A DNA stretch of 60,325 nt, counting the filler. It is 3 parts of 3 records of this genome, joined end to end, with 100 filler letters (N's around TTAATTAATTAA, not from the genome) between each part and the next. Parts side by side here need not be neighbours in the genome. Positions count along the whole stretch, not along the records: positions 17,471 to 44,059 come from DRR378314_1554; 2 more parts are not named here. One strand, given 5' to 3'. The notes below the pieces were generated by a model, which made no database searches, was not told where the DNA came from, and was given only the letters and a program-made list of their open reading frames with translations. The position numbers and the translations under genes are program-made. Of the stretch, positions 8,603 to 46,275 are shown in pieces. Within the stretch, counting starts at the first letter, position 1; every line of letters starts with the position of its first letter.

Positions 8603-11034
8603 TTAGCTTCTCCGACGACTTTCTTTCTTCTTCAGTCGTTTCTCTTGCGCTTTCGAACGCTGCGGGCCATCCGTCATCAGCCCACTTGTGTATGCCCACA
8701 CGCCAAAAGCGATCAGCGCGCCGACGACGATAAGGACGAAAAGGACGAGGCCGCTGTGACAACAGTGAACAACAAGTAGTTTCCAAAGAGCAGTGGGCAA
8801 GCACGTGACCGTCGTCAGAGCGATATTCCTGTTCGTCGAGGGCCCCGCCCCCTTTGCCATTCAAACGAATAGAATGACTGTTGTTCGAGAAGAAGCTCGC
8901 AGTTTCGATCGATATCCCACGATCACAGCGGCACAGCAGGCGGAAGCAGAGGGTCTACTCACGGTCTAGTCAAGCAGGCTGCGATGCGAGAGCTGCGCAG
9001 GTTATCAGAGGCAAACTCTCCGTCGTCTATGAAGGCCCCTTTCCCCAGCACAGTGGGGGATCCGGACAGCAAAGAGCTGTGCAATACCGTAAGGAATGAA
9101 ATAAAATAAGATAATGCTACTGTGTAAGATCACGAGCTTCTCCACTCCGGGAGGGTTCGTCGGCAAGCCACACGATCGGGACACGCAACATGGCAAGGCG
9201 TGGCTTCACACGCATAGACTTGCTCATCGAAAGGCACGCGCAGCAAGGCAACCTGTCCGCCAACTCGCTCTCGCGCGGAGCTGGCGCCAGCTAGCCACAC
9301 CAAGATACTCTTCTGTGTGTTCCCACGAGTCAGCACATAATCACAGAAGCAGAAGGGATATAGTATACCACGCGTGGCGAGTTTCTATCAGCGTCAGTGC
9401 TCAAAAAGCCCAGACATCCGCAAGAGGGACCTCGCACACCGAGGGCCGGTCTTGCGCAAAGCTGTTCAGGTGCGCAGCAGTGCTGACGAGGATCGCTGCT
9501 TCGCCTGCACCCTTCGGCCGGAAAGTAACAGAGCTGTCTTTGTCGCAGGAAAACGACGGCGCCTCTGGTCACAACGCAGAGCACCTTTCTCTTCATTCAT
9601 ATTCTTTCAAAACAGCGCCGCTAAAGGGAGTACCGGCCAAACTACTGGGAAGAGTGAGTGCTAGCAGAGTACCTCCGGGGGGGTTGCAGCGAGTCATCGC
9701 GCAGCGTGCAGCTGCGCACCACCGCGCCGAGCCGGCCCGCTTGGCGACAGAGCGGCGAGACGCCGCGCGGGTTCGGAGGCCAAGCGCACCCTCGGCGTCC
9801 AGCAGAGTTCACGCTTGGTCCACAGCCCGCGCATCAGCATAAACTATCCTATAGAACATATGGGAATGGGTTACCTGTTTTGCAAACTGTCAGTGCGGCA
9901 CGGGAGCTTTCGTCAAACAGCGACGGGGTTGGCGAGGCTGTGGAAACCTGTGACGATCGCGAACGCGGCGTCGGTACATTGGACAGGCGCACTGCGCAGG
10001 AACAGCGCCCCACAGCAGCGAGCGAGTATGCCCCATGGGCGCACGAGCGACGAGCAGGAATCGCAAAATAATAATAATACTATTGCACGGGCGCGCCTCG
10101 TACATTTCGCCATGCCGATGCATACGAAAAGTATTATCCAAAAATCTTGCACATTCAACTGTGTAAAAACTAGAAGCAAACACCCGTCACAAAGCGAAAG
10201 GTGAAGTCACCAGCAGCCGCAAAGCACAAGCCACGAAGACCCGCAGCGTCCGCAACGTCCGTGCATCATTGGGGACATGTGCAGCGGCAGGCGCATGAAC
10301 GAACGGAAGCGCTCGCAGCGCTGCCAGGGGCGAACGCCAGGAATGGCGTAGGAGCCAGCCTGCCGCACAAAAGAGACGCACTGGAACGAAGAAACTTACA
10401 ATGGGAATCCCTGAGGATCCTTTGTCGCGTCCTGCGCTTCAGCAGCAAGGGCGGTGAACATCATCGTGTAGAGGCGGGAGGAATATAAGGTGCGAAAGAA
10501 AACGCTCGAGCAGCGGAAGAGAGCCGGTCTCGCAGTGCTCGCGTGTGGCGGAAGTTTCGTGCGCTACGGCAACGACGCAGCACGTGCGGGCACAAACTGC
10601 GATCGAACTGGTGTTGCCAACGCCGCAAGGACAAGGCTAGAGGTGGTTCTGTTTCTAGGGGTACGATACCAAGATGATTTCACTTCCGGTTCGCAAGGGC
10701 TTCCCAACGTTTTCCCCTTCACGATCGCAACGTGCTGCCGGTGCTCTCCTCAGCACTGTGCACGCAATTATTACGAAAAACAAAACAAAACAAACAAACA
10801 CAACGTTGTACCCGGACTGGTGCGTTCAGAATTGCATGCCGATTACGTATGTGGTCACATAGGAATGAAAAGATGGTTTAGCTCATCGCCATACATCGCG
10901 AGAGGATTCCAGCATCAGCGCAGCACGTAGCGCGGGTCCCGGTCGCACGCCGTTTTCTGTCGCGGTGCAAAGCCAGATGCTACGCGACTTACCTATGCCT
11001 TAGCCCGCTTCAGTAGCAGCGCTTTCTTACCCAT
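8603..11034 (-). CDS. Spliced gene for a hypothetical protein with a C-terminal transmembrane helix and basic tail
   Basis: Exons 9076-8963 and 8753-8603 join in frame (phase 2) to give GLVLFVLIVVGALIAFGVWAY..KRLKKKESRRRS*. Further minus-strand splice signals lie upstream, with a candidate ATGG|GTAAGA at 11034. The 5' structure is unresolved. Confidence 0.4.
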
Positions 11035-11300
11035 TTTGTTACATTGTGTGAACGCACTTTCGAAGGGAATGCATCGCACGAGTGGTAGAACATGGGATAG
11101 AGCGGAGCTGCTTTGCCGTGGTGCACGCCAAACTGCTTCTTGTCAGCTGGCGAGGGTTAGGGAAAGTTTCTGGCAGACGAAATGGGAGGGAAAGCGTCTG
11201 AGAATTGATGGACGCGCTGGACCAACGTCGCGGGACCGTTTGCAAATCTTCGCCGTGTGGTCGGTCTTTCGAGCGGGAAATCGCCAACTCCATCACCGAA

Positions 11301-13448
<2,148 letters not shown>

Positions 13449-14092
13449 ACTGGTTCGTATGCGGCAACCGTATCAATGGCCGTCTTGTGTGTGAAAGAAA
13501 CGCCGCGTTCTGCCCAGGGCGGCCAAACCACGCCGCCATACTCGCTTCCGTCTAACGAACACATGCGCGGGAACCATTTCGAAACACATCATCCTATTGG
13601 CTTGATCCTACATATTCCACCTTTATCGCACATATTCTGCAGTACCTCTATATGCATTTGTGCAAATAAGGCAGCTCCTTTGGTATGGAGAACTGCCGTA
13701 CGAGTAGTCGTCGGCAGAGACCCGCAGCAGCGGACTGTGCGCCATGTCACACACAAACACAACACAGCGCCTCCCGCTGCTGCTCCAAAGCCCTCGCTCG
13801 CAAATAAACTAAAGAGATAGTGGAATATATGCGATGTTGAAGCTACTCCAATGGGTTCAGATGGAATGATGCCTGGCGTGGTGCCCCGCCTGCTTCCCCT
13901 GGCTCTCCGGAAGCGAGCGCGCGCGCCCATGTGTGCTGTACGGGCCGTGTCCCCGGCACGTTGTGCGGCGCGGGTTCTGCACTGCGTTTCCCGCGAATGA
14001 CAAAACATGACACAACGCAAGCAATGATCTTATGTATCCAATTCATTCATGAACATTGAATTTCCCACGTTGGAGGTGCTCAGAAAAGGAGC

Positions 14093-17000
14093 CTATGAAG
14101 CGGCGGATTCTGCCGCTTGTAGAGCCTCGCGCACTCTCGCGCGCGCCCCTGGGGAAAAGAACGCTATAATCTCTGCTCGCAAAAAACTTGCATCCTCATG
14201 CAATCGTTTTACGAGACTCTGTCGAGAACATATGCCGCACTGCTTCAAGCTTGATATCAGCTGTACAGCTTTCTTTGAAGACGTTGCATGTCTGGAGAGA
14301 GTGCACGCGATCACGCACAGGTGAGTACGACACCGCGAGACACTCCGCCTATCGCAGCACCGTCGTCTCGCGCAAAGCGTTCCAGCGTGCGGACGGTCGA
14401 AAGGCAAAGGGCACGCGACCGGCTTGTGCGCGTGTATATGAGGCACAGTACACACACTTTGCATAGACGAAAACAAGAAGACTGGGTCTCGTCGCACTCG
14501 GTGAGGGCAAGGTCGCCCACGCCCGGCTCACTCGCACTTCATTGCGTGTTGCGGAAAGAAAGAACCCGTGGAGCGCAACAGCACACTCTCTCGGTGCAAT
14601 ATAGCATGTAAAAATCAACAACCTCCTGTACACCGAAAACACACGAGAACGGTTCTTGCTAATATTTAAATTACAACAGTAGCTTGTGCGCGCCAAATTA
14701 CGGAGAAAAAAATCACGTACTTGATTACGGTATCTGGCTTTGTCTTCAGGGCCTCTGCGCAGTCCTTGAGCGAAGGAATCACTTTGCCGACAAGGATCGC
14801 ATACGCGAAATACCTGCAAGTACACCATCCCCCACAGCAGCGCAGCCACACACGAGATTCACGCATATTGCGAAAGTTGCAAATTTCAAGTAAATGTATT
14901 ATTCTCCACCGTAAGTGCGCGTGCGGCTCACTCATCTCCCCCGTCTGTCTACCGCTGCAGCGTACTCCGCGGAGCGCACCGGAGAGCAGCAAGAAATTTC
15001 GAGAAAGACACGCACCTGTATACGACGCGGTCGGATTCTCGCAGCGGGATTTTTGCCGGTGGCAATTCCCACTGGTAATTGCCGAAACGAGCGCGCACAC
15101 GCGCAATCACCGCGTCGCGTGTGGCGCTATATGAAGGCGGCGGATCTTCCACGATCGTCTCGCCCGTCATGAGCGGCGTTCCGCGCGCGTACTCAAAGAT
15201 CCATTTCGGGTCCACCCTCGTGCAGCCGCGCAGGAACGCTACTTCGTTCCTGCGCGATAGTACAACGTCGGCAAACGCCACGTATTCCGCGTCGGACAGC
15301 GGGGAAGAGCGGTGGACCGCACAGCGCTGCACGGCGCCGCCGCTCACACCTCCGCCCGCGACCGCACAGTCCTCCCCGCGATCGCACATGTAGTAGTGTG
15401 CGCCGCGGCGACGCGCAATACGGTCCACGAGACCCGCAGTGAGCGCACGGCAGAGCGTGTCCGCGCGCGCATCGTCGAGCGGTCGTCGGAGCTGTCGTAT
15501 AGCGTCCGCACCGCCGCGGAGACCAGCGAGTTCGCACGCGTTTGCGAGCTGTTCAACGAGCTGCGCCGCCTCACGCAGCGTCTTCAGCCGTAATCCGTGC
15601 GATTTACACCACGATCCAAGCGACTCGGAGCGCAAATCTGCACATTGAGAACGACAGGGCGATCACAAAAAAGGACACGGTTGTGCGCGCGGTCGAGAGC
15701 TTACGAGGGCGAAATTGCAAGAAATAGACGACAATAGAGTCACAATACGAGACCTCGAGCGCCGAGTTTTCCAGACGAAGATTCCACGAGCATACCTTTC
15801 GAGCGATCACGCTCGAACAGAAACGCTCCCAAAGCCTTCACATCACCGATGAGTTCGGAGCGTGAATCGCGCCAGAGGTCGCGCAGGCGATCGCGCCGGT
15901 CGCTCGCGCTCAGGAGCTCCGCGGTTTCCTCGTCACTGGAACTCGACGAAGAACCGGAATCACCGGACGAAGCTGCAAAACACATACCAAACGCACAACG
16001 CAATTTCTTTTTGATTTCCTGATGTGGGTGTGGCGGCAATAGCGAAACAAAGTCGGTTTCTGCCCATCGTATTGTATCGGACAGTCAACGCTGGGAAAAC
16101 GCAAAGAGAGTCGCAGGACGACGAGACTCGCGTGCTGTGATTCTCGCAGACACAACCAGCGATCACGACGATGCTCCCCCGACCGTTACACGGAGCTGTT
16201 GCGCGTGGCGAGTCCGCGCCCACTCCACCGAGGACACGCGCGTCATACCGTTCCCCTCTTTTGTGTATGCGGCTAAGATGCGCGGGTCGATTGGCGAACC
16301 GACACTGAGGACTGATACTGCTGCGAGTCCGTACGGAAGAATCCCCGTCGAGGCGCACACGGCGAGAACGCGCCCAAAACGCGGAGAAATCGGTATTCGG
16401 GCAAGTCTTCGACGTTTACGAGCGTTCATATCCACACACACGAACCAGGGTTGCCACGTAAAAAAGGAAAACGAGGTACAGAGGAACGAAGCGGTTTCGA
16501 GTGAGAAGCAGGACAGTACGGAAAGAACAAAAACGAGGGAAAGGCAGCGACTCACTATCACTTGTGCGGAGACGCGGCAGTTCGTGTTTGCGCTTCTCCC
16601 GAGGAAAAGGAAGAACCTGCACAATCCAAACAAGAACCTTGCTTGTACACAGCAGAGAATCTACGCCTCTTTCAATCGACACAGGACTCATACACTTTGT
16701 ATTAGTGTCCTGCATACTTGTTTTCTATCGTGGAGCAATGAGGAGAAAGAAGCGAGTGTGTACGTACTGGACGGGGAGCACGTCTTCGCTGTTACTTCCA
16801 GGTGCAGAACGAGCGCGCAGCGGTCGTGCGGCGTTCATTATCCGTACCTTTTCCCGGCGTCGGTAACGTAGAGAGTATCCTCTTCCCCTGCCAAGCATTG
16901 TAGGCATTGTAAGGCTCGTGTGGCTGCTTTGAGCTCATCCGGCGGCGGCGGCGACGGGAACGGGAAGCGCGACACTGCAGCGATACCCATCGCGCGCAGC

Positions 17001-17370: not shown

Positions 17371-17470
17371 NNNNNNNNNNNNNNNNNNNNNNNNNNNNNN
17401 NNNNNNNNNNNNNNTTAATTAATTAANNNNNNNNNNNNNNNNNNNNNNNNNNNNNNNNNNNNNNNNNNNN
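17371..17470. other. Artificial contig junction (N run with TTAATTAATTAA all-frame stop linker)
   Basis: 100-nt block with linker at 17415-17426. Intron-containing genes lie to the left and bacterial operons to the right. Confidence 0.97.
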
Positions 17471-18273: not shown

Positions 18274-20244
18274 TTAATGGGAATAGTCGTCGGAGCCATG
18301 GCGTTCCGATTTCAGGAACCGTGTGCCGCCAGAGCGTGAATTCAGTTGCCGGATGTTGGTCGGCGCGCCAGTGTCATCCAGCTCCACCACGCCAATACCG
18401 GCGTTGTTCCATAGCCGTTCGCCAGCGTCTCGCCCTTCGGGCAGCCTGGGGCTTACGCGCATGCGCCGGCGCTTGGTAAACCAGTTCAGCGGGGACCAGG
18501 GCGCGTACAGCCAGCGGTTGAGTCTGTCCAGCCACTCCATAAGGGTGTGGGGGAATTCGTTCTTGATGCCGCTGCTGGTGATCTGCCAGATTCGGGGCCG
18601 CTCGGGCCGGTGGCGCAGTCGAACATCGTAGACGAAGGAGTAATGCACGTCACCTGAGAGGATCACGAAGGTTTCCGGCGTGCGGGAGTGTCGAAAGATG
18701 TTCAGCAGCACGTTGGCGGCGCCCCGGTGGGCCATCCAGTTTTCGGCGTCCACCACCAAGGGTTTGCCAAAGAAGGTGAACACGCTCTGGATGGCTTCGA
18801 TCAGTTTCACGCCGAACATGGGCGCGGGCGACACCACGATCACGGCTTTTTCGCCCATCACGTCCTGCTGGAACTCGGTCAGCGCTTCCCAGTCCAGCAG
18901 GCCGGACGGCCGGGCGCGGTTGAGTTCGCTGCGCCAGCGCCGGGTGCGGGTGTCCAGCACCACGATTTTCGGTGAGGTGTTCAGCGTATAGTGCCATTGC
19001 TGGAACTGCAGCAGGGTATCAATCAGTTGGTCCTGCCCGGTTTGGTCGAGCACGCCGCCCTGCTCCGCCGAGCCGGCCAGGTCCTTGATGGCCGGCATGA
19101 TGTCCTCGAAGGCGTCAGGGTTGTTGCCCCATCCCTGGCACAGCAGGTAGGCCACCAGCGCATTGCCAACGATGCGCCGGGAGAACGGGTGTTCGTAGGT
19201 GGTGGCTTCCCACAGGGCTGACAGGTTCCAGTCGTCCGTCACGTCGTGGTCGTCAAAGATCATGTAGGTGGGCAGATGCGCCAGCGCTCGTGAGGCGCGG
19301 GGCAAGCCGGCTACGAACTCGTCGATGGCGGCTTGCTGGTCCTGATAAGCCGTGGCGTCTTCGGCGTTCAGCTCGGGTTGGTCCTGCCGCAACAGCTCCC
19401 AGCACACCGGTGACCATACCAGCAGGTACATGGCCGTGACTTCGCTGAGGGAAATCAGGTGGTTGTGGGCACTGGCGGTGGTGAACACCGGTTTGCGTAC
19501 GCCGCCGAAGAATCGTTCAATCAGCGCTTCGTTGCTGCGCACATCCGGGAGCAGTTTTTCCCTGTGGAAGTAGGTGTCGGCGCTTTCCCGCAAGGTTTTG
19601 CTGTCGCTGACAGAACCGCCGGTGAGCGTTTCCTCGTACAGGCCCAGGCGGTCAATCAGTTGGTGTATGGCCCGCAGCATGGGGCCGGCCACATCGTCGG
19701 CGTAGATCTGGTCGCCGGTCATCAGCAGCAAGGCCGGCCGCTGGGCGATATCACTCTGGGCCTCCAACAGGGATTCGTCCACCCTCACCAACCCGTCAGC
19801 GGCGGTCGAATGGGGCCGCCGGCAGGAACCGTGGGCCAGGCGGTCCAGCCGTTCCCGGAGGGTAAAATCGGGGCGGTCGGCATCCGGCAGGCACAGGTGT
19901 GGTGCCCACTCCCGTATCCAGGATTCCTTCCTGCCATTGGAATCCGATGCTTCAGCGGACACGCCCAGGTCGTAGCCGATGCGGGTGTTGGCCGGTAGGG
20001 CATCATCCGTTTCCACGTCGATCAAATACAGGTAGGCGGAGGCACCGAACCGCACTCGGGTGACGTCTCTCTCAGTCAGTACCCGATCCTGCCACGGCTC
20101 GCCGGATTCCGGCAAATAAAGCCGCAACCTCAGAGTAAGCGCGCAGGAACCCACCAGCCAAAGAGTAAGCCGGCTTGCCGTTGTGTGCCGGAGAATCGGC
20201 CCGGCCAACACCGGCGGCAGGGACTGCGAAGACGGCTCACTCAT
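18274..20244 (-). CDS. PhoD-like alkaline phosphatase D family metallophosphoesterase
   Basis: Motifs HGSCR, MTGDQIYADDV, MIFDDHDVTDDWN, LDTRT and LSGDVHYS. ATG at 20244 has a GGAGGA RBS. Confidence 0.88.
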   Translation of the reverse strand: MSEPSSQSLPPVLAGPILRHTTASRLTLWLVGSCALTLRLRLYLPESGEPWQDRVLTERDVTRVRFGASAYLYLIDVETDDALPANTRIGYDLGVSAEASDSNGRKESWIREWAPHLCLPDADRPDFTLRERLDRLAHGSCRRPHSTAADGLVRVDESLLEAQSDIAQRPALLLMTGDQIYADDVAGPMLRAIHQLIDRLGLYEETLTGGSVSDSKTLRESADTYFHREKLLPDVRSNEALIERFFGGVRKPVFTTASAHNHLISLSEVTAMYLLVWSPVCWELLRQDQPELNAEDATAYQDQQAAIDEFVAGLPRASRALAHLPTYMIFDDHDVTDDWNLSALWEATTYEHPFSRRIVGNALVAYLLCQGWGNNPDAFEDIMPAIKDLAGSAEQGGVLDQTGQDQLIDTLLQFQQWHYTLNTSPKIVVLDTRTRRWRSELNRARPSGLLDWEALTEFQQDVMGEKAVIVVSPAPMFGVKLIEAIQSVFTFFGKPLVVDAENWMAHRGAANVLLNIFRHSRTPETFVILSGDVHYSFVYDVRLRHRPERPRIWQITSSGIKNEFPHTLMEWLDRLNRWLYAPWSPLNWFTKRRRMRVSPRLPEGRDAGERLWNNAGIGVVELDDTGAPTNIRQLNSRSGGTRFLKSERHGSDDYSH

Positions 20245-20349
20245 TTCATCCTCCTGACACACTTCGATGTTTTATTGATGTTTACCAGACATTTCCTTGA
20301 ACCTTGCCCGCTTCGGTAGGGGCGTCTCAACCAACGTCCGGTGACAACA

Positions 20350-21354
20350 ATGCGAGTCGGTGACAATTTTTCGAAGAACCTGCACAAACTGGGTTACTAC
20401 TCTGGGAACGCAGTACGCTCCCTGGTTCCCCGAGCTTACTGGCAACGCCAGTGCGACCTGCTGATGGCAGCGTACGAGGCCGAAATACCTGCACGCAAGG
20501 CCGCGATCGACGCCCGGGTTGCCTACTACAATCGAATGTCGTCCCCTTTCTCACTGCCTGTGTCGGCAGAACGCGCCGGCGACTTTACCTTTGCCGGTAA
20601 GAGTAGCGCGTACTGTTTCGATTTTCGCAACCTTATCCAGTGTTTCCCCCGTGACCGAAAAGTGGATTACCAGTTCGGAGACGTCACGGAAATTCCCGAT
20701 GAGCCACGCTTTGTGAAGAGCCGGCCCATTCGCCGCGATGCCACCAATCGCAACTCAGTATTACTCAAACTCAACTCGGTTCGGCATTACCAATTTGTTG
20801 AGGACCTCACCCCGTTCCGCGAAAAGAAGCCCATGGCGGTGTGGCGCGGCAAGTCCAACCGCCAACACCGTATCGATTTTGCCAACCGGTTTACGGACCA
20901 CCCGCTGTGCGATATTGGCTGCACTCAGCACAAGGAACCCGAGGCCCAGCCCTACCACAAGGACTTCATGAGCATTGAGGAACAGCTGCAACATCAGTTC
21001 GTGGTGAGCGTGGAAGGCATTGATGTAGCGACGAACCTGAAGTGGATCATGGCCTCCAACTCCCTGTGCCTGATGCGCCGGCCCCGTTTCGAAACCTGGT
21101 TTATGGAGGGCGCGCTGGTGCCCGGTTACCACTACGTGGAACTGGCCGACGACCATTCCGACCTGCCCGAGAAAATCCGCTACTACCAGAACCACCCCGA
21201 TGAGGCGGAGGCGATCATCGCCAACGCCAACCGGTACGTTACAAAGTTTTATGATCAACAAATGGAACAGACTATTGCACTGTTGGTGATTCAGAAATAC
21301 CTTCAACTGAGCGGACAGGAGGTGTACGACCTCCCACGTCTAAAGGCCAGTTGA
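20350..21354 (+). CDS. Glycosyltransferase family 90 (LpsA/CAP10-like LPS modification protein)
   Basis: Motifs AVWRG, SVEGIDVATNLKWIMASNSL, ETWFMEG.LVPGYHYV and AEAIIANA. Confidence 0.85.
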   Translation: MRVGDNFSKNLHKLGYYSGNAVRSLVPRAYWQRQCDLLMAAYEAEIPARKAAIDARVAYYNRMSSPFSLPVSAERAGDFTFAGKSSAYCFDFRNLIQCFPRDRKVDYQFGDVTEIPDEPRFVKSRPIRRDATNRNSVLLKLNSVRHYQFVEDLTPFREKKPMAVWRGKSNRQHRIDFANRFTDHPLCDIGCTQHKEPEAQPYHKDFMSIEEQLQHQFVVSVEGIDVATNLKWIMASNSLCLMRRPRFETWFMEGALVPGYHYVELADDHSDLPEKIRYYQNHPDEAEAIIANANRYVTKFYDQQMEQTIALLVIQKYLQLSGQEVYDLPRLKAS

Positions 21355-22150: not shown

Positions 22151-22756
22151 CTAATCGGTCGGCGACACTCTCGCCAGTATCGTCGGGTTATCCGACAACG
22201 GCAGCGCAATCACCACCCCCTCGTTTGACGAGGGGGATATACCGGTCAATGCTGTGATATTGACCTGATGTGATACCAGCACTATCGGCGGCCTGGGCTC
22301 CATGCTGTTCACAATGGCGATGGTCTGCTCGGTCTGCATGTCCGCCTTGCCTCGATTCCGAAAGAATGAATTTAGCGACAGCATCTCCTCCACCGGCCCC
22401 ACATCCATTTCATGCGCGGTGTCCATGCAACGGCACCACTGGCTGCTGAAGACCCTCGCTTCATCAATACCGTGTTCCGCCAGATAGGGCTTCCACGCCC
22501 TCGCCTGCTCGCGCCCCTCGGCATTCAGGTTTCGCTGCGTGCTGCAATCGTCGACATCAAAGTTGGCAGGGTCGCCGGTTCCCGGTGCCAGAGCGTGTCG
22601 CAACATTAACACTGCCCGCCCCTCGCGGAGGGCGTGCCAGGCCTCTGACTCATTGTCAGCGGCAATTACCGGCGATGACAGAAACACGCTCAGCATCGCT
22701 ATCAGAAGAAACCGACCGGTTATGACCAACGCCTCCCTAGTCCAATACAGAAACAT
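22151..22756 (-). CDS. Histidine phosphatase (phosphoglycerate mutase-like), probably exported; start uncertain
   Basis: Motifs LRHALAPG.GDP, CSTQRNL, SSQWCRC and VSHQVNI. Hydrophobic N-terminal segment. Confidence 0.85.
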   Translation of the reverse strand: MFLYWTREALVITGRFLLIAMLSVFLSSPVIAADNESEAWHALREGRAVLMLRHALAPGTGDPANFDVDDCSTQRNLNAEGREQARAWKPYLAEHGIDEARVFSSQWCRCMDTAHEMDVGPVEEMLSLNSFFRNRGKADMQTEQTIAIVNSMEPRPPIVLVSHQVNITALTGISPSSNEGVVIALPLSDNPTILARVSPTD

Positions 22757-22843: not shown

Positions 22844-23296
22844 ATGCCAATCTGGGTCGACGCCGACGCCTGCCCCGTCCCCATCCGGGAAATTCTCTGC
22901 CGCGCCGCCACCCGCTGGCAGGTCGAAACCACGTTCATCGCCAACCATGCCATCAACCTGCCCCCAAGCCCCTACATCAAACGCCGGCAGGTTCCCCAGG
23001 GTTTCGACGTGGCCGACAACGACATTATCGACCAGATGGAAAAAGGCGACCTGGTGATCACCCAGGACATCCCCCTGGCTGCCGAAGCCATCGAAAAAGG
23101 CGCGGACGTGTTCAACCCTCGCGGCCAGGCCTTTACCAAAGAAAACATCCGCCAGCGCCTGGCCATGCGCAACTTCATGGAGGAAATGCGCAACGCCGGC
23201 CAGGTTACAGGCGGCCCCGCACCGTTCAGCCAGACCGACCGCAAGGAATTCGCCGACAAGCTCGACCGCTGGCTGCAACAGAATAAAAAACGGTAA
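22844..23296 (+). CDS. yaiI: YaiI/YqxD (UPF0178, DUF188) protein
   Basis: Motifs IWVDADACPV, DVADNDI, DLVITQDIPLA, NPRG and TGGPAPF. Confidence 0.92.
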   Translation: MPIWVDADACPVPIREILCRAATRWQVETTFIANHAINLPPSPYIKRRQVPQGFDVADNDIIDQMEKGDLVITQDIPLAAEAIEKGADVFNPRGQAFTKENIRQRLAMRNFMEEMRNAGQVTGGPAPFSQTDRKEFADKLDRWLQQNKKR

Positions 23297-23372
23297 TCGG
23301 CCGGGCTGGCAATAACGCAGACAGTCGTCCAAGGTACGAATGAGCCCTCAATTCCAAGCAGGGAGGACGACC

Positions 23373-24335
23373 ATGAGCCAGAAACCCGCCGATTTGGCAC
23401 GCCTGGAGCGCTACGGGCCGGGAACCACTGAATACACCCTCGCCATCATCACCGACGAGGACCACGCCTCCCAGGTGGAGCTGGAGGATGGCCAGACCGC
23501 CTGGCAGTCCACCCTCCGCTACGACAAGCTCTATCGTGACGTGGACCCGGACACCGGAAAAGTCCGTTATCGCCTGGAAGAAATCCCGGAGGATCACGGC
23601 GGTGAGCACCACCTGATCAGCCTGATTGCCGAAGGCGGCCGTGGCGCGGAGTTCTCCGAGCTGGTGCAGTTTGGCCAGCGGTTGGTCACCTTCGATGATC
23701 GCACTGGCCTGGTGTGTGAAATCCGCAATGAAAACCAGCTTGTTCCCCGCCATATTCTGATGACCGGCAGCGGAGACGAGAAGTTCAAGGGCTTCAAAAG
23801 CGAGTGGGCCACCCTGAAAGGCGACGACATGATTGTCGGCAGCCATGGCAAAAAGCCCCAGGAAGAATGGATCAAGGTGCTGGACCGGCACTACGCACTG
23901 AGCAGTGTCGACTGGCGCGAGAACTACCAGCGCATCCGCGATGCCTTGGAGGTTGGGCCCGACGGCTACGTGATCCACGAGGCTGCGGAATGGCACCCCT
24001 ATCGCAAGGAATGGCTGTTCTTCCCCCGCAAGATTTCGACAGAGCCCTTCGACGAACCCATTGATGAACGGGAGCGCGGCGCCAATACCCTGATCATCAC
24101 CGACGAGGATTTCAGCAACATACGCACCCTCACCATCGGCGAACGGGTACCGGAGCGGGGGATCTCCTCGTTCAAGGTCATTCCGGGCTACCCCAACGAA
24201 TGCGTGGGCCTGAAGAGTGTTGAAATCGGCGACCATACGGAAACCTGGCTGTTCTGCTTCAACCTGGACGGAGAGGTTTTGCAGGAAGACACGCTTGTTG
24301 GCCGCTACAAATGTGAGGGCGTGGAGATCCTGTAG
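23373..24335 (+). CDS. Apyrase of the Ca2+-activated nucleotidase (CANT1/Cimex) beta-propeller family
   Basis: Ordered motifs IITDED, GRGAEFSEL, DDRTG, FKSEW, GYVIHEA, FFPRKIS, GISSFKVIP, LKSVE and KCEGVE. GGAGG RBS precedes the ATG. Confidence 0.88.
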   Translation: MSQKPADLARLERYGPGTTEYTLAIITDEDHASQVELEDGQTAWQSTLRYDKLYRDVDPDTGKVRYRLEEIPEDHGGEHHLISLIAEGGRGAEFSELVQFGQRLVTFDDRTGLVCEIRNENQLVPRHILMTGSGDEKFKGFKSEWATLKGDDMIVGSHGKKPQEEWIKVLDRHYALSSVDWRENYQRIRDALEVGPDGYVIHEAAEWHPYRKEWLFFPRKISTEPFDEPIDERERGANTLIITDEDFSNIRTLTIGERVPERGISSFKVIPGYPNECVGLKSVEIGDHTETWLFCFNLDGEVLQEDTLVGRYKCEGVEIL

Positions 24336-24440
24336 CCACCGAGTCCCCGCGCTTGGGCGGGGTTTTATGATAATGATTCTCTTTGAACCGACGCTCAAAT
24401 CCGCTACCCTTGCCGCTTTCTGGCGCAAGCGGAGCGAACC

Positions 24441-26231
24441 ATGACAGAGTCTTCCCCCCATACCACCAGCAGCTTTGCCGCCCTGGGCCGACTGCTGAAA
24501 TACGCTCGCGGCTACCGCCGCCAGATCATTGCCGCCACGACCTGTTCCATCATCAACAAGCTGTTCGACATTGCGCCGGAGATCCTGATCGGTATCGCCA
24601 TCGATGTGGTGGTGAACAAGGAAGAAAGCTTTGTGGCCAGCCTGGGCTTTGAGACCGCCCAGGAGCAGATCACCATCCTTGCGGTTCTAACCTTTTTCAT
24701 CTGGGCCGGCGAATCCATATTCGAGTACCTGTTCCAGATCCTCTGGCGCAACCTGGCCCAGCGCCTGCAGTCCGACCTGCGCCAAGACGCCTACGAGCAC
24801 GCGCAGAAACTGGACATGAGCTTCTTTGAGGCTCGCAGCTCCGGGCAGCTGGTCGCTACCATGAACGACGACGTCAACCAGCTGGAGCGTTTCCTGGATG
24901 GCGGCGCCAACGCCATGATTCAGGTGGTGGTGACGGTCGTTGCCGTGGGCGCTGTGTTTTTCGTGTTGTCACCGCTCATCGCGCTGCTGGCGTTTACTCC
25001 GATTCCGCTGATTATCTGGGGAGCGTTCTACTTCCAGCGTAAGGCTGGCCCGCTGTATGCCGACGTGCGTGAGAAAGTGGGGGACCTGTCCAGCCGGTTG
25101 GCCAACAACCTGGGTGGCATTGCCACCATCAAGAGCTTCACGGCCGAAAACCGGGAAGCCGAGCGGCTGAAAGCCAGCAGTGAAGCCTATGTGGACGCAA
25201 ACCGCCGGGCCATTCGCATCAGCTCCGCCTTTATTCCGGTCATCCGTATGGCCATCCTGGCGGGCTTTCTGGCCACCTTTACCGTGGGCGGCATGATGGC
25301 CCTGGAGGGCACGCTGAATGTGGGCGCCTATGGTGTTTTGGTGTTCCTGACCCAGCGCCTGCTGTGGCCTTTGACCGGCCTTGCGGAAGTGATCGACCTG
25401 TTTGAACGGGCCATGGCCAGTACCCGCCGCATCCTCGATCTGTTGGCAGAGCCGGTGCACGTTCGGGACGAGTCCGGCAAGTCGCTGGAGCAGCCGGTGA
25501 AAGGCGAAGTTACTTTCGACGGTGTGAGCTTCCACTACCCGTCCAGCGGTGCCGGTATCGATGATATTTCTGTGGCGGTACCGGCCGGAAACACCCTGGC
25601 GCTGGTCGGGGCGACCGGTTCCGGTAAATCCACACTGATCAAGCTGTTGCTGCGCTTCTATGATCCTACCGGCGGCCAGATCCGCATCGACGGCCAGCCC
25701 ATCCAGTCCGTCAGCCTGAAGTCCCTGCGGGAGGCCATCGGCCTGGTCAGCCAGGACGTGTACCTGTTCGAGGGCAGCATCCGCGAGAATCTTGCCTACG
25801 GCTCCCCCGGCGCCAGTGACGAACAGATTATCGAAGCCGCCAAGACGGCCGAGGCCTGGTCCTTCATTGAGGCGCTGCCCGAGGGGCTTGCCACCGCCGT
25901 GGGCGAACGCGGGGTGCGGCTTTCCGGTGGCCAGCGCCAGCGTCTGTCACTGGCCCGTGCACTGCTGAAAGACCCGCCCATCCTGGTGCTCGACGAAGCC
26001 ACCAGTGCCGTGGACAACGAGACCGAGGCGGCTATCCAGCGTTCACTCAAGCGGATCGGCCACAATCGCACGGTGATCATGATCGCGCATCGGCTGTCCA
26101 CCATAGTGGATGCGGATACCATTGCGGTGGTAGCCGGTGGGCGCATTCTGGAGTCCGGCCGCCATGAGGAACTGCTGGAGAATAACGGCCCCTATTCCGC
26201 ACAATGGCGCGTGCAGACCGGTCAGGCGTGA
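24441..26231 (+). CDS. ABC exporter, fused TMD-NBD (MsbA/MdlB-like)
   Basis: N-terminal TM domain, Walker A GATGSGKS, signature LSGGQRQR, Walker B LDEATSAVD and AHRLST. Confidence 0.93.
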   Translation: MTESSPHTTSSFAALGRLLKYARGYRRQIIAATTCSIINKLFDIAPEILIGIAIDVVVNKEESFVASLGFETAQEQITILAVLTFFIWAGESIFEYLFQILWRNLAQRLQSDLRQDAYEHAQKLDMSFFEARSSGQLVATMNDDVNQLERFLDGGANAMIQVVVTVVAVGAVFFVLSPLIALLAFTPIPLIIWGAFYFQRKAGPLYADVREKVGDLSSRLANNLGGIATIKSFTAENREAERLKASSEAYVDANRRAIRISSAFIPVIRMAILAGFLATFTVGGMMALEGTLNVGAYGVLVFLTQRLLWPLTGLAEVIDLFERAMASTRRILDLLAEPVHVRDESGKSLEQPVKGEVTFDGVSFHYPSSGAGIDDISVAVPAGNTLALVGATGSGKSTLIKLLLRFYDPTGGQIRIDGQPIQSVSLKSLREAIGLVSQDVYLFEGSIRENLAYGSPGASDEQIIEAAKTAEAWSFIEALPEGLATAVGERGVRLSGGQRQRLSLARALLKDPPILVLDEATSAVDNETEAAIQRSLKRIGHNRTVIMIAHRLSTIVDADTIAVVAGGRILESGRHEELLENNGPYSAQWRVQTGQA

Positions 26232-26247
26232 CAGCACGCCATACATT

Positions 26248-26266
26248 GATAGTAATTCGCATTTAG
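26248..26266. promoter_or_regulatory. Probable Fur box upstream of fhuCDB
   Basis: Reverse strand CTAAATGCGAATTACTATC matches 12/19 of GATAATGATAATCATTATC and lies directly upstream of siderophore uptake genes. Confidence 0.55.
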
Positions 26267-26302
26267 ATTATTCTGCAGGCCCTCAGAATTACGGGAGCCT
26301 GC

Positions 26303-27076
26303 ATGTCTGCGTTCTTTGAAGTATCCAGCCTGGGCGTGCACATTGGTGACGCTGCCATCCTTAACGACATCAACATTGCGTTTCGTGAAGGCGAGGTCAC
26401 TGCCCTGCTCGGTCATAATGGCTCCGGTAAATCCACGTTATTGAAAGTACTGGCCCGCCAGCTGTCCCCCTCGGCGGGCGATGCAAGCCTGCTGGGCAGC
26501 TCGTTCCGGACCACCGGTGCGCGGGAATTCGCCCGCACGGTCGGTTATCTGCCGCAACATCCGCCGGGCACAGACGGCCTGACCGTCCGTGAACTCGTCG
26601 CCCTGGGGCGCTATCCCTGGCGCGGGCCACTTGGTCGCTACAACAGCGAAGACCATCGGCTGATCGATCAGGCCATTCACGACACAGGGCTTGGCCACTT
26701 CCAGCACCGTTCCGTGGACACACTCTCCGGTGGCGAACGCCAGCGCGCCTGGATTGCCATGCTGCTGGCGCAACAGACTCGCTGCCTGCTGCTGGACGAG
26801 CCGATTTCCGCCCTGGATGTGAAGCATCAGGTGGAAACCCTCCGCCTGGTGCACCGCCTGGCCGAAGAACGGGAACTGACCGTGATTGTGGTGCTGCACG
26901 ATGTCGACCTGGCCGCCCGCTTCTGCGACCGGCTGGTGGCCCTCAAAGGCGGTCGGTTGATCGCAGACGGCAGCCCCCGCGACATCATGGACTCGGGAAC
27001 TCTGGAATCCATCTATGGCGTGCCAATGGGGGTGATGGAGCGGGCACCGGGCCAATGGGTCTCGTATGTACACTGA
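26303..27076 (+). CDS. fhuC: Ferric hydroxamate ABC transporter ATPase
   Basis: Motifs GHNGSGKST, LGRYPW, LSGGERQRAWIAMLLAQ and LLDEPISALD. Confidence 0.9.
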   Translation: MSAFFEVSSLGVHIGDAAILNDINIAFREGEVTALLGHNGSGKSTLLKVLARQLSPSAGDASLLGSSFRTTGAREFARTVGYLPQHPPGTDGLTVRELVALGRYPWRGPLGRYNSEDHRLIDQAIHDTGLGHFQHRSVDTLSGGERQRAWIAMLLAQQTRCLLLDEPISALDVKHQVETLRLVHRLAEERELTVIVVLHDVDLAARFCDRLVALKGGRLIADGSPRDIMDSGTLESIYGVPMGVMERAPGQWVSYVH

Positions 27077-27998
27077 GCGTGTCTCCGGAACCCTGATGGC
27101 ATTGATACTCTTTGTTGCCCTGTCTCTGCCCGCCAGCGCCGGCACCTGGCAACATGAGGCCGGCACCCTCACCCTGGATGAGCAACCCGAGCGGGTTGTC
27201 GCGCTGAACTGGGCTGCCACAGAGGCGTTGCTATTGCTGGGCGTAACGCCCGTGGGCGTTGCTGACCGGGATGGCTACGACGTGTGGGTGAACGAACCGG
27301 AGCTTCCCGAGCACGTTCCCAACATCGGTACCCGCGTCGCGCCTAGCCTGGAAGCCATCGCAGAACTGAAACCGGACCTGATCGTTACCAGCGCGGAAAT
27401 GGCACCCGCCGCAAAGCTGCTCGAACAGATCGCCCCCACGTACGTCATCAGTGTGTACAAAGAAGGCAGCCAACCCTTCGAAAAAGCCAGTGACATGCTG
27501 ACCACTCTCGGCGAGATGCTGGGGCGTGAGGCCCGCGCCGAATCGATTCTGGCGGACATTAACGCCACCCTGGAAACGCAGCGCCGCCGGCTGGAAGCGG
27601 CGGAACTGACAGACCGGCCCGTTGCACTGGTCAATTTCATGGATGCCCGTCACGTGCGGATATACGCCCCCAACGGTCTTTACCAGAGTGCCCTGAACGC
27701 CCTTGGCCTGGAAAACGCCTGGCCCCGTCAAGGCAACTTCTGGGGCTTCTCGGTGGTGGGCCTGGAGTCCATTGCCCCCTATCAGGACAGCCGCATCGTG
27801 GTGATTGCGCCCACCGCCCCCGGGCTTTCAGACACCCTGGCCCACAGTCCGTTCTGGACGTACCTGCCGGCAGTTAACCGCAACCAGGTCTACGAGATCG
27901 GCGCCATCTGGCCGTTTGGCGGTGTTTATCCTGTGAAACGGCTGGCCACCATGCTGACAGACAGCCTGCTGGCCGGGGGCTCCGACAATGTACGCTAG
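27066..27998 (+). CDS. fhuD: Ferric hydroxamate periplasmic binding protein
   Basis: Signal peptide, then PERVVALNW, LGVTPVGVAD, PSLEAIAELKPDLI and NFWGF. Confidence 0.88.
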   Translation: MYTERVSGTLMALILFVALSLPASAGTWQHEAGTLTLDEQPERVVALNWAATEALLLLGVTPVGVADRDGYDVWVNEPELPEHVPNIGTRVAPSLEAIAELKPDLIVTSAEMAPAAKLLEQIAPTYVISVYKEGSQPFEKASDMLTTLGEMLGREARAESILADINATLETQRRRLEAAELTDRPVALVNFMDARHVRIYAPNGLYQSALNALGLENAWPRQGNFWGFSVVGLESIAPYQDSRIVVIAPTAPGLSDTLAHSPFWTYLPAVNRNQVYEIGAIWPFGGVYPVKRLATMLTDSLLAGGSDNVR

Positions 27999-30018
27999 CG
28001 CCTCCGGCATGCCTGCTTCCCGCCCGGTTGTGGCCGCCAGGCTGCCCATTGCAGCCATTCTGCTCTGGCTGGGCGCCTTGCTTGCCAGCGCGGCTCCCTG
28101 GCTCAACCAACTGGATGCCTGGGCCGTCTTGTCATCGTTCTGGGCCTTTAATCCGGACAATTATTCATCAGTTCTGGCTCATTTCAGTTGGGCGCCGCGA
28201 GTATCCATCGCCATTCTGATCGGCTGCGGCCTGGGCCTGGCCGGGGCCGTCACCCAACAGGTGCTGGGGAATCCACTGGCATCGCCTACCACACTCGGTG
28301 TGGAAGCGGGTGGCCAATTCGGGGTGACCGTCGCCACACTGTTCGCACCCGGACTGCTGGCCTTTAGCCCGGATCTGGTCGCCATTGCGGGCGGCCTGAT
28401 CGCGATCGGCATGGTCATCGCCCTGACCTGGCGACTGGGCTTCTCACCCGTGACGGTGATTCTTGCCGGCCTTGTCATCACCTTCTTTCTCGGTGCTCTT
28501 AACATGGCATTTTTGCTGCTCAAAGGTGAGTGGCTGGGCAATCTCTTCATCTGGGGCGCCGGCTCTCTGGTACAGAACAACTGGGGGCCGTTCATGGAGC
28601 TCTGGCCTCGCGTACTGGTCATCTCGGTGCTGATATTGCTGCTGATGCGACCATTGCAGGTGCTGCAACTGGGGCAGTCGTCTGCCAGTTCGCTGGGTGC
28701 CAGGGTCGGGCTTATTCGGGCTCTGGCGCTGTTCCTGGTGGTACTGATGACGGCAACGGTTGTCAGCCGGGTTGGTGTGGTGGCCTTTGTGGGACTGGCT
28801 GCGCCGGTACTGGCACGCCTGCTGGGCGCACGTACATTGGCCAGTCGCATTCTGTGGAGCACGCTCATGGGCGGCGGGCTATTACTTCTTGCGGACACCC
28901 TGGCGCATTGGGCGTCTACCTGGGGCGACGGCTCCCTGGTGCCCACGGGAACCACCACGGCTCTGATTGGTGGCCCGATTATCCTGCTGGCGTTGCAGGG
29001 TTTCAGAAATACCCATCACATGCCCGGACAGGAATCCAACCCGGCAGGCTTCCAGCCCAGGCGGCGCGCGCCTTTGCTGGTCAGCGGTATCGTGACCGGG
29101 CTGATCGCGATCACCGTGGCCGTTTCCATGGGCTGGTCCCCGGGCCTGGATGGCTGGAACTGGACGCCCGCCACTCAATGGGGCGACGCCTGGGTATGGC
29201 GTGGCCCGCGCCTGTTGGCCGCGATGCTGGCCGGGGTCGCATTGGGCCTCGCCGGCACGCTGATTCAGCGAATGACGGGCAATCCGATGGGCAGCCCGGA
29301 AATGCTGGGCATCAGTGGTGGTGCTGCCCTGGCCATGGTGCTGATCGTGCTCACTGGCGCAGACGTGGGGCGGGCTGGACAGCTTGGTGCTGCGACACTC
29401 GGCGCTGCCGGCGCGCTTGGGTTGCTAATTCTACTGGCCCGCAAACATCGTTTCGCCGGCAACCAGCTGCTACTCGGCGGCCTGGCCCTGTATGTCTTCA
29501 TGGATGCAGGGCTGAGGTTGGTCATGGCCTCCGGTGGGACCGTCGCGTCGCAACTGCTGAACTGGATGTACGGTTCCACCTGGCTGGTTTCCGAAACCGA
29601 GGCGTTTGGGCTGCTGGGATTCATCCTCCTCATCTGCGGCCTGCTGGTGCTGATCGTGCGCCCCCTGACGCTGCTGCCTCTGGGAGATACGTCGGCATCG
29701 TCCCTCGGGCTTCCGGTCACCAAAGCTCGCCTGCTGTTGCTGCTGCTTGCGGCGGTTCTAACGGCGTCGGCAACCGTAGTGATTGGCCCTCTGAGTTTCG
29801 TGGGGCTCATCGCACCGCACTTGGCCAGGGTACTGGGGCAGCAAACCGTTGGCAGGCAATTGATTGTGGCCGCGTTGGTGGGCGGGCTTCTGTTGGCCCT
29901 GGCAGACTATCTGGCGCGCGTTGTCGTCTTCCCCAACCAGTTGCCAGCAGGCTTGCTGGCTGCGCTGGTCGGCGGCGTCTATTTCTTGTGGGGACTAAGC
30001 CGGCACGGCAAAGCGTGA
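27988..30018 (+). CDS. fhuB: Ferric hydroxamate ABC permease (double FecCD domain)
   Basis: Two FecCD repeats (NPLASPTTLG and NPMGSPEMLG), FVGLAAP/FVGLIAPH, 676 aa, very hydrophobic. Confidence 0.92.
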   Translation: MYASASGMPASRPVVAARLPIAAILLWLGALLASAAPWLNQLDAWAVLSSFWAFNPDNYSSVLAHFSWAPRVSIAILIGCGLGLAGAVTQQVLGNPLASPTTLGVEAGGQFGVTVATLFAPGLLAFSPDLVAIAGGLIAIGMVIALTWRLGFSPVTVILAGLVITFFLGALNMAFLLLKGEWLGNLFIWGAGSLVQNNWGPFMELWPRVLVISVLILLLMRPLQVLQLGQSSASSLGARVGLIRALALFLVVLMTATVVSRVGVVAFVGLAAPVLARLLGARTLASRILWSTLMGGGLLLLADTLAHWASTWGDGSLVPTGTTTALIGGPIILLALQGFRNTHHMPGQESNPAGFQPRRRAPLLVSGIVTGLIAITVAVSMGWSPGLDGWNWTPATQWGDAWVWRGPRLLAAMLAGVALGLAGTLIQRMTGNPMGSPEMLGISGGAALAMVLIVLTGADVGRAGQLGAATLGAAGALGLLILLARKHRFAGNQLLLGGLALYVFMDAGLRLVMASGGTVASQLLNWMYGSTWLVSETEAFGLLGFILLICGLLVLIVRPLTLLPLGDTSASSLGLPVTKARLLLLLLAAVLTASATVVIGPLSFVGLIAPHLARVLGQQTVGRQLIVAALVGGLLLALADYLARVVVFPNQLPAGLLAALVGGVYFLWGLSRHGKA

Positions 30019-44026: not shown

Positions 44027-44059
44027 TCAGAAACTGTACGGAGCCATGGATGGCGGAGT
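44027..44059. repeat. Truncated second copy of the palindromic element at the contig end
   Basis: CGGAGCCATGGATGGCGGAG is the exact reverse complement of the core at 43046-43065. Confidence 0.8.
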
Positions 44060-44159
44060 NNNNNNNNNNNNNNNNNNNNNNNNNNNNNNNNNNNNNNNNN
44101 NNNTTAATTAATTAANNNNNNNNNNNNNNNNNNNNNNNNNNNNNNNNNNNNNNNNNNNN
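44060..44159. other. Artificial contig junction (N run with TTAATTAATTAA linker)
   Basis: Linker at 44104-44115. Gene content switches from gamma- to alphaproteobacterial style. Confidence 0.97.
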
Positions 44160-45162: not shown

Positions 45163-45168
45163 TTTCTC

Positions 45169-46269: not shown

Positions 46270-46275
46270 GCGGAA

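Follow-up and report, generated by a model that had tools for sequence, protein, structure and literature searches.

A leaderless bacterial member of the CANT1/Cimex apyrase family, most likely acquired from a eukaryote

Introduction

Can a bacterial contig carry an intact gene of the CANT1/Cimex apyrase family, and if so, where did the gene come from and what might its product do? These Ca2+-activated nucleotidases have so far been treated as a eukaryote-only family, and a 2012 paper describes them as apparently absent from bacteria (PMC3280346). We found no literature on bacterial members in a search that left most subscription journals outside, so their absence from print is not proven. Here we analyze one such gene, encoding 320 amino acids (aa), in a 60,325-nucleotide (nt) stretch of DNA that we call the window. 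The window consists of three contigs with a linker between each and the next, made up of a 12-nt stop-rich spacer that has 44 N on either side; the apyrase gene and its neighbors all lie inside the middle contig (17471-44059), from a Marinobacter-type marine bacterium. We addressed three questions: (i) whether the protein belongs to the family by fold and by key residues; (ii) how the gene is distributed and where it originated; and (iii) whether its neighbors suggest a function.

Results

The window gene encodes a full-length CANT1-type apyrase

A first-pass annotation of the window had called the gene product a CANT1/Cimex apyrase homologue, and the profile and structure searches that it put forward as tests both returned the family. 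The protein matches the Pfam profile Apyrase (PF06079) over positions 5-290 of 291 (E = 9.7e-78; 261.8 bits against a cut-off of 27), and NCBIfam has no model for it. A phmmer search of the PDB retrieved human apyrase/SCAN entries 1s18, 2h2n and 2h2u (E = 2.5e-46 to 2.8e-47). An AlphaFold2 (AF2) model, built on an 85-sequence alignment, had a mean predicted local distance difference test (pLDDT) score of 96.5 and a predicted template-modeling (TM) score of 0.93. Foldseek against the PDB placed four human apyrase/SCAN chains at the top, with E-values near 1e-32, TM-scores of 0.85-0.87 (0.86 to 1s18) and a root-mean-square deviation (rmsd) of 1.8-2.0 Å over 312 columns; the next match had an E-value of 1.4e-07. 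The figure of five blades for the apyrase propeller is that of the literature. A search of the ESM Atlas returned just the apyrase family itself.

We then compared key residues. In PMC10228885, S168, E284, S345 and E396 of human apyrase are listed among six Ca2+-binding residues and D181 among three that are essential for activity; the same source lists S91, E92, E139, E206, S269 and E320 (Ca2+) and D38, D104 and R86 (activity) for a sand-fly apyrase. Human numbers equal the 1s18_A chain index plus 70, which is consistent for all five named residues. These five align to S95, E203, S265, E315 and D108 of the window protein, and all are present. The remaining Ca2+ positions, E96 and E144 (human D169 and E215), and the essential D30 and R90 are present as well, mapped by motif through the sand-fly list. 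Hence, all six Ca2+-ligand positions (S95, E96, E144, E203, S265 and E315) and all three activity-essential positions (D30, R90 and D108) are kept. The human list of 13 nucleotide-binding residues was compared in part only. Across 85 family members, D30, E93, S95, D109, G112, E203, P218, R219, G263, E284, K313, E315 and G316 (window numbering) are invariant, and D28, R90, E144 and S265 are at least 90% conserved. The first-pass annotation had also remarked that the protein is missing the loop that follows GK in human CANT1. The alignments agree: the peptide GSHGKKPQEEW is present, and the gap measures 10 residues in the alignment to human CANT1 and 11 columns in two further alignments. Taken together, the window protein is almost certainly a CANT1-type hydrolase of nucleoside di- and triphosphates (NDP/NTP), with activity and Ca2+ dependence that we infer from these matches.

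The reading frame is open and uninterrupted at 23340-24335(+), and the likely start, ATG 23373, gives a length shared by most of the 120 relatives described below. The 320-aa, intron-free gene with a ribosome-binding site that was originally annotated is therefore what we find (Table 1). Directly downstream of the stop codon is a terminator-like hairpin of six GC pairs followed by TTTT.

Bacterial apyrases lack a leader

The characterized members of this family typically carry a secretory signal peptide or a membrane anchor, and neither is present in the window apyrase. Its Kyte-Doolittle(15) values peak at 0.15 within the first 50 residues and at 0.58 over the whole protein, its N-terminus is polar, and the protein is acidic (pI 4.82). 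Neither the window protein nor any of 21 other bacterial N-termini that we inspected has a signal peptide, a Tat motif or a hydrophobic segment. In all 22, about 15-20 residues precede the first strand; the N-termini of eukaryotic relatives are longer by 30-100 residues. The earlier observation that the protein has no leader thus extends to other bacterial members, which also start at the propeller. We consider a soluble, cytoplasmic location most likely, because an export signal is missing and because the phosphatase that is the commonest partner of the gene (see below) is equally leaderless.

The bacterial clade is small, patchily spread and mostly intact

A word-indexed protein search returned 241 relatives. 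The 120 that were listed are 304-374 aa long and 68-93% identical, and those with names come from Marinobacter, Hydrocarboniclastica, Stutzerimonas, Halomonas, Pseudomonas, Chromatocurvus and similar genera; some carry the automatic database name "soluble calcium-activated nucleotidase 1". We also scanned one genome per species, 185,579 species in all, with the single peptide pattern GRG[AM]E[FL]SEL. The pattern matched 112 stretches, 60 of which encode an apyrase relative, a count that is a lower bound. The 60 loci belong mostly to marine or hypersaline Gammaproteobacteria, namely Marinobacter, Stutzerimonas, Halopseudomonas, Halomonas, Arhodomonas, Idiomarina, Rheinheimera, Cellvibrio, Chromatocurvus, Thiohalorhabdus and Halofilum; Rhodovibrio is represented too. 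Others lie in bins labeled Geitlerinema, Halothece, Planctomycetaceae and Bipolaricaulia, labels that may be wrong. Complete chromosomes are represented (S. stutzeri JZ20 and Pseudomonas sp. YJ42). The bacterial apyrase clade is small and patchily spread.

The gene is intact and full length in 54 of the 60 loci; contig ends cut two copies (L046 and L062), and four are disrupted. The disrupted copies comprise two with frameshifts (L053 and L061, from S. stutzeri CLN100 and S. xanthomarina DSM 18231), one with an internal deletion (L063, a Cellvibrionaceae bin) and one spread across several frames (L065, a Halofilum bin), and may reflect either gene decay or draft-assembly error. The ratio of nonsynonymous to synonymous substitution rates (dN/dS) for the window gene is 0.053, 0.061 and 0.058 against its closest relatives L007, L006 and L008, respectively, at dS of 0.64-1.3. 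The gene is under strong purifying selection. These data bear on the idea that the nucleotidase function has been lost, so that the propeller now binds Ca2+ or acts as a scaffold, or is what remains of a transferred gene in decay. The four broken copies, an 8-aa insertion in the clade and the 11-aa deletion beside GK in most members would fit such a loss. Against it, every Ca2+-ligand and essential position is kept, dN/dS is near 0.05, 54 of 60 copies are intact, and a high-confidence model superposes on human CANT1 at 2 Å; we regard loss of function as highly improbable.

A single shallow clan beside a deep eukaryotic family

An exhaustive HMMER pass over 1.84 billion cluster representatives gave 973 matches with E ≤ 0.001, and the bacterial type is represented among them by a single full-length sequence, P0121 (61% identity, 428 bits). 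Below it, scores are at most 212 bits and identities at most 45%. We looked up the 20 nearest representatives: P0121 itself, nine unlabeled metagenome proteins and ten with eukaryotic labels (Pygsuia, Paradermamoeba, Arcella, two from Anaeramoeba, Vermistella, Trimastix, one unnamed EukProt transcriptome and two MMETSP entries). No bacterial label occurs among these 20, and the nearest labeled relatives, at 37-45% identity, are all protists.

We built a FastTree phylogeny of 163 rows, made up of 55 bacterial sequences, P0121 and 107 other representatives. Short or split copies (L046, L053, L061, L062 and L063) were left out, as were L065, which has no intact open reading frame (ORF), and representatives with a coverage below 270 residues or a length above 560 aa. 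The 55 bacterial rows and P0121 form one clan (support 100) on a stem of 0.89 changes per column. Tips within the clan have a median depth of 0.44, versus 2.4 from the same node to the other rows. An IQ-TREE quick search (LG+C20+F+G4 PMSF, 76 rows) recovered the same split with a Shimodaira-Hasegawa-like approximate likelihood ratio test (SH-aLRT) value of 100. An insertion of about 8 residues (IPEDHGGEH in the window) occurs in all bacterial rows and is absent from the eukaryote-like rows. A loop of eukaryotic length after GK is retained in eight bacterial rows (L047, L050, L051, L052, L055, L058, L059 and P0121), which occupy one side of the branch starred in the tree (97), the loop columns having been excluded from tree building; the 48 other rows of the clan, the window included, are without the 11 residues. 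In the quick tree the outgroup branch is about 2 changes per column and the loop-bearing rows are not basal, so we dropped an attempt to root inside the bacterial clade. The sister group of the clan consists of Amoebozoa-like sequences at a support of 73, which is weak and not to be over-read.

Families are mixed inside the clan, with Halomonas nested in Marinobacter and Rheinheimera paired with Cellvibrio; further transfer among bacteria therefore fits. The most economical account of one shallow bacterial clan next to a deep family that spans the eukaryotes is transfer from a eukaryote, and we consider it most likely, from the shape of these trees, that the bacterial clade arose in this direction. 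The possibility of horizontal gene transfer (HGT) raised in the first-pass annotation thus stands, given the one shallow clan, the 60 loci among 185,579 species genomes and the protist affinity of the nearest labeled relatives.

Neighbor families that recur across lineages

For clues to function, we compared all ORFs within 7 kb of the apyrase gene, all against all, at the 60 loci. Most neighbor families are lineage synteny, for example DUF1615 and an AraC regulator flanking the apyrase gene in Stutzerimonas. Three recur across lineages: a PhoD-like protein, a CaCA antiporter and a YgiW/BOF-type protein with an OB fold. The genes of the first two are often placed as in an operon with the apyrase gene. 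The last occurs near the apyrase gene in 8 of 60 loci, a link that we consider weaker because the YgiW/BOF-type gene also occurs at a yaiI/exporter junction that has no apyrase gene (see below).

The PhoD-like gene lies within 7 kb of the apyrase gene in 10 of 60 loci and is directly adjacent in nine, across five families and in three arrangements: divergent and upstream in Marinobacter (L008, L013 and L016); downstream on the same strand in Halopseudomonas, Chromatocurvus and Cellvibrio (L017, L042 and L057); and, in Idiomarina (L048, L049 and L064), upstream on the same strand, where it abuts or overlaps the start of the apyrase gene. In the window it is 3 kb upstream. Members of this family measure about 650 aa, and sources name them "alkaline phosphatase D family protein". 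The window protein scores 34 bits against the PF09423 cut-off of 27, over profile positions 227-293 of 343 only, and its translation contains GDQIYAD, DDHD and GDVH, which we take to be metallophosphatase-like motifs. No Tat or Sec signal was found in 11 PhoD-like sequences, among them those of the window and of L008, L013, L016, L017, L042, L048, L049, L057 and L064. Judging from these sequences, we assign the gene to a widespread, uncharacterized and cytoplasmic PhoD-like subfamily.

The CaCA Na+/Ca2+ antiporter (PF01699, E = 7e-51; TIGR00367 falls below its cut-off) is found at 10 of 60 loci in seven lineages, and in L026, L030, L045 and L055 the antiporter and apyrase genes share a strand and are 70-170 nt apart. 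The linked antiporters are 63-70% identical to one another, even across contigs labeled Planctomycetaceae, Rhodovibrio and Marinobacter, and this identity across phyla suggests co-transfer with the apyrase gene. Antiporter, PhoD-like gene and apyrase gene occur together in three Marinobacter loci.

The same survey bears on an anti-phage or abortive-infection role, in which the apyrase would deplete nucleotides once membrane damage or perforation by a phage let Ca2+ in. Depletion of nucleotides is an established principle of defense, the distribution is patchy and HGT-driven, four of 60 copies are disrupted, and an integrase, an IS481 transposase and McrBC lie near a few loci, one member each. 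Yet PADLOC gave no family for the apyrase, yaiI, PhoD-like, GT90, DUF533 or histidine phosphatase proteins and only generic ABC/P-loop matches for the exporter, and there was no PHROG match. Neighbors are mostly housekeeping genes or lineage synteny, no defense-typical sensor or partner gene recurs, and purifying selection is strong. The anti-phage idea of the first-pass annotation thus finds no backing in these searches, and we now judge it very improbable.

A further neighbor in the window, between the PhoD-like gene and the apyrase gene, is a Glyco_transf_90 (GT90; CAP10/POGLUT-type) gene at 20341-21354(+) (E = 5.9e-21), of a family best known from eukaryotes. Apart from the window, a GT90 homologue is near the apyrase gene in one of 60 loci (L007, M. 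iranensis). We considered whether the apyrase might be a cytoplasmic UDP/GDP-ase that clears a glycosyltransferase by-product, as a bacterial counterpart of Golgi CANT1, for instance for this GT90 enzyme encoded 2 kb upstream. CANT1 prefers UDP as substrate, according to two papers (PMC7262921 and PMC6598859), and together with the GT90 gene this preference is what recommends the idea. The near-absence of GT90 from the other loci argues against it, as does the fact that no glycosyltransferase recurs across lineages (Glycos_transf_1 appears once in 109 neighbors). Moreover, cytosolic NDPs are normally re-phosphorylated, not hydrolyzed. We therefore hold a by-product-clearing role to be very unlikely. 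Also nearby, at 22151-22756(-), is a histidine-phosphatase-family protein with a clear N-terminal signal-like hydrophobic segment, so that three phosphohydrolase genes (PhoD-like, histidine phosphatase and apyrase) fall within 6 kb.

The yaiI/exporter setting is an insertion site

In the window, the apyrase gene stands between yaiI and an MsbA-like ABC exporter gene that starts 105 nt downstream. The order yaiI, apyrase, (YgiW-like), ABC exporter occurs in 6 of 60 loci (L006, L007, L009, L011, L012 and L023), all Marinobacter; a seventh, L015, also Marinobacter, is cut off by the contig end. M. iranensis 71-i and Marinobacter sp. CI.60 have contigs collinear with the apyrase contig of the window, and the nucleotide identity is 82-86%. 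In two Marinobacter genomes that carry the apyrase gene elsewhere (L075 and L077), yaiI directly adjoins the same exporter, about 100-130 nt apart, and in M. persicus (L076), where the apyrase gene is also elsewhere, only a YgiW-like (BOF) gene separates the two. The exporters of L075 and L077 are 81-87% identical to that of the window, and no apyrase remnant was found at the junctions of L075, L076 and L077. Because of these apyrase-free junctions, we conclude that the apyrase gene was inserted into a pre-existing yaiI/exporter junction. The setting is an insertion site, not an operon, and is incidental. The co-oriented position between yaiI and the exporter described in the first-pass annotation is correct; a functional meaning does not follow, given its restriction to 6-7 of 60 loci, the intervening hairpin and the apyrase-free junctions.

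Export is an alternative, suggested in the first-pass annotation as a way to quench extracellular ATP signals of a eukaryotic host: the protein could leave the cell by a non-classical route (vesicles, lysis or the neighboring ABC exporter) and hydrolyze extracellular nucleotides, for phosphate or to remove host ATP signals. The exporter is close, the host taxa are marine or hypersaline, seawater Ca2+ suits a Ca2+-activated enzyme and, to our knowledge, all characterized family members act outside the cytosol. But the 22 bacterial N-termini lack any signal peptide, Tat motif or hydrophobic segment; the adjacency to the exporter is limited to 6-7 of 60 loci, where an insertion brought it about; a terminator-like hairpin lies between the two genes; and the PhoD-like partner, too, is without the signal of exported PhoD enzymes (11 N-termini). 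The exporter scores 368 against an NCBIfam type_I_sec cut-off of 725, and no HlyD-type membrane-fusion or outer-membrane component was found near it, the next genes being an iron/B12-type ABC importer. A type I secretion linkage, meaning a conserved exporter with a membrane-fusion partner, was therefore not found for the window apyrase. We consider export unlikely, and the missing export signal also speaks against a quenching of extracellular ATP.

In the importer operon, which also has an ATPase and a periplasmic binding protein, the FecCD-family permease (676 aa; 27988-30018(+)) contains two FecCD stretches, a fused double permease. Contigs of a relative about 92-93% identical, from two RNA-Seq runs of one study (X18 and X19), span 23141-24268 and 24397-26999, and a metatranscriptome (X21) contains a 151-nt piece within the apyrase gene. 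We dropped these as evidence of expression, since the same libraries contain 80-kb contigs and DNA carry-over is possible. In the X18/X19 relative, 123 unrelated letters take the place of the final ~65 nt of the apyrase gene together with the spacer (24268-24397); the 3' end of the gene and the terminator region differ among close relatives.

Table 1. Features of the apyrase region, in window coordinates
Feature	Position	Strand	Evidence or remark
Artificial contig linker, left end of apyrase contig	17371..17470	.	44 N, 12 nt, 44 N
Leaderless PhoD-like (alkaline phosphatase D family) gene, 662 aa, candidate functional partner	18274..20262	-	PF09423
yaiI/DUF188 gene, incidental upstream neighbor	22844..23296	+	E = 9.5e-51; NCBIfam YaiI equivalog, 197 bits against 139
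Shine-Dalgarno-like GGGAGGA	23361..23367	+	5 nt before ATG 23373; direct sequence reading
CANT1/apyrase-family gene, 320 aa, leaderless	23373..24335	+	PF06079, PDB sequence matches, AF2/Foldseek, dN/dS
Terminator-like GC hairpin and T run	24345..24366	+	directly 3' of apyrase stop; consensus scan, pattern match only
MsbA-like ABC exporter gene, incidental downstream neighbor	24441..26231	+	ABC_membrane and ABC_tran; below every NCBIfam cut-off
Artificial contig linker, right end of apyrase contig	44060..44159	.	44 N, 12 nt, 44 N

The flanking contigs

Because the window is three joined contigs, synteny or GC arguments across the linkers are meaningless, and we dropped a genomic-island reading of the GC step at 18-34 kb for this reason. 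A second island argument, from kin, was also dropped: PF06079 is found in none of 41 relatives of genome G001 (a tally in which the control likewise matched in no genome) and in none of 70 genomes of its genus, but G001 matches the third contig only, at 98% identity over its whole length (44160-60325; G001:C3). Window positions 1-14000 have no DNA match in G001. A close orthologue of the exporter was found neither in G001 nor in four genomes of its genus; with no apyrase in that genus either, the contigs may not all come from one organism.

The first contig (1-17370) has a GC content of 0.51-0.565 (bins up to 18 kb). No Pfam match was found in 10 ORFs tested there and no PHROG match in 7; its sole Pfam match is an OB_NTP_bind fragment at 14949-15635. 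Two Marinobacter genomes (G092 and G095) have no match to it except a repeat of about 50 nt beside the linker. The third contig has genes of ordinary chromosomal kinds: Ppx/GppA, an FtsJ-type methyltransferase, a multihaem cytochrome, a sulfatase, a PLD-type cardiolipin synthase, an FtsX/MacB permease and CrtC. An element of about 100 nt with perfect 25-nt terminal inverted repeats lies at 42991-43094, and also at 44027-44058 and about 56539-56634. It has dozens of copies, at 75-100% identity, in G092 and G095, and looks like a repetitive extragenic palindrome (REP) or miniature inverted-repeat transposable element (MITE) type of repeat.

Discussion

We set out to ask what a CANT1/Cimex-type gene is doing in a bacterial contig. 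The reading that we favor, and hold to be somewhat better than an even bet, is that it encodes a eukaryote-derived, cytoplasmic, Ca2+-dependent NDP/NTP hydrolase that takes part in Ca2+-linked nucleotide breakdown and phosphate release. The enzymology and origin of the protein are much firmer than its physiology. A single eukaryote-to-bacterium transfer would have been followed by spread among marine and hypersaline bacteria as a small accessory gene. In the cytoplasm, the enzyme would hydrolyze NDP/NTP to nucleoside monophosphate (NMP) and inorganic phosphate (Pi) in a Ca2+-dependent manner. The recurrent antiporter linkage ties the apyrase to Ca2+ handling: the CaCA Na+/Ca2+ antiporter may set the Ca2+ level for the enzyme, and the two linkages, PhoD-like and CaCA, would point to intracellular nucleotide breakdown with release of phosphate.

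Several observations weigh against this reading. The first concerns Ca2+ itself: resting free Ca2+ in bacteria is sub-micromolar and the human enzyme requires far more, so a Ca2+-activated enzyme would be mostly off in the cytoplasm unless its affinity differs. A missing leader is also no proof of a cytoplasmic location. Each partner is near the apyrase gene in a minority of loci, 10 of 60. In five genomes without adjacency, a PhoD-like gene lies elsewhere in three and has no match in two (Arhodomonas and Rhodovibrio sodomensis), and the specific CaCA subfamily was found in two of five genomes checked; S. stutzeri JZ20, Halomonas garicola and Idiomarina aquatica have distant CaCA relatives only (≤33% identity). 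The PhoD-like family, with at least 7426 relatives, is far wider than the apyrase, and the two are therefore no obligate pair. Its assignment is itself soft: the Pfam match is weak, sequence and profile searches found no PDB relative, and the AF2 model is poor (pLDDT 59, from 10 sequences). Pho-box-like sites number 5 in the window against 4.55 expected, none near the apyrase gene. A search for an upstream motif common to several lineages gave only a Marinobacter-specific stretch, CCAAGGTAC. As for origin and spread, the transfer direction was read from unrooted trees, the count of loci comes from a single peptide pattern, and several taxon labels are metagenome-bin labels.

In a more speculative proposal, which we put forward as a long shot, the apyrase is a cytoplasmic effector of Ca2+ transients. 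At the resting Ca2+ level it would be inactive; membrane stress, osmotic shock or perforation by a phage would let Ca2+ in from a Ca2+-rich brine and so activate it. Together with the leaderless PhoD-like protein it would then rapidly convert NDP/NTP to NMP and Pi, until the co-transferred antiporter reset the system. If true, it would be a eukaryote-derived and directly assayable output of bacterial Ca2+ signaling.

What is new here is where a known enzyme family occurs, namely in another domain of life, probably in another compartment and in an association with other genes, although automatic database names for some members pre-exist. The leaderless bacterial form would put a Ca2+-activated nucleotidase where Ca2+ is normally scarce, and the antiporter linkage offers a testable handle on the long-debated Ca2+ regulation of bacterial metabolism. 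The clade is also a clean candidate for transfer from a eukaryote to a bacterium, with subsequent spread among halophiles. On the practical side, these soluble, acidic bacterial apyrases require neither glycosylation nor disulfide-dependent secretion, so that their production for structural and mechanistic studies may be simpler than that of the human enzyme.

The closest known system is human CANT1/SCAN-1 (1S18, 1S1D, 2H2N and 2H2U), which shares with the window protein the Pfam family, the propeller fold (TM 0.86, rmsd 2.0 Å, 34-35% identity) and equivalent residues at the six Ca2+ and three essential positions. In contrast to human CANT1, the window protein is bacterial and acidic, has neither an N-terminal membrane anchor nor secretory targeting, is without 10-11 residues after GK and has about 8 extra residues in the first blade region. 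The salivary apyrases of Cimex and Phlebotomus belong to the same family, and in Table 3 of PMC10228885 the equivalent of human D169 is E in both sand-fly enzymes listed, as in the window protein (E96). As described there, the sand-fly and Cimex enzymes are secreted proteins with signal peptides, and their substrates are ADP and ATP in the blood of the host (PMC10228885); the window protein has no signal. Cryptosporidium CApy is a microbial family member with SCAN-1-like, Ca2+-dependent activity, but comes from a eukaryote and is an enzyme of the cell surface with a signal peptide (PMC3280346).

For the partner, Bacillus PhoD is the nearest reference: the window PhoD-like protein matches PF09423 above the cut-off, and differs in its length of 662 aa, in having no Tat/Sec signal and in having no PDB relative by sequence. 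Legionella Lpg1905, an ecto-NTPDase of the CD39/GDA1 family, is a precedent for a eukaryote-like bacterial nucleotidase and is usually explained by transfer from eukaryotes. That enzyme is of an unrelated fold and family and is secreted by an intracellular pathogen, whereas the window protein is a leaderless propeller of free-living marine and halophilic hosts.

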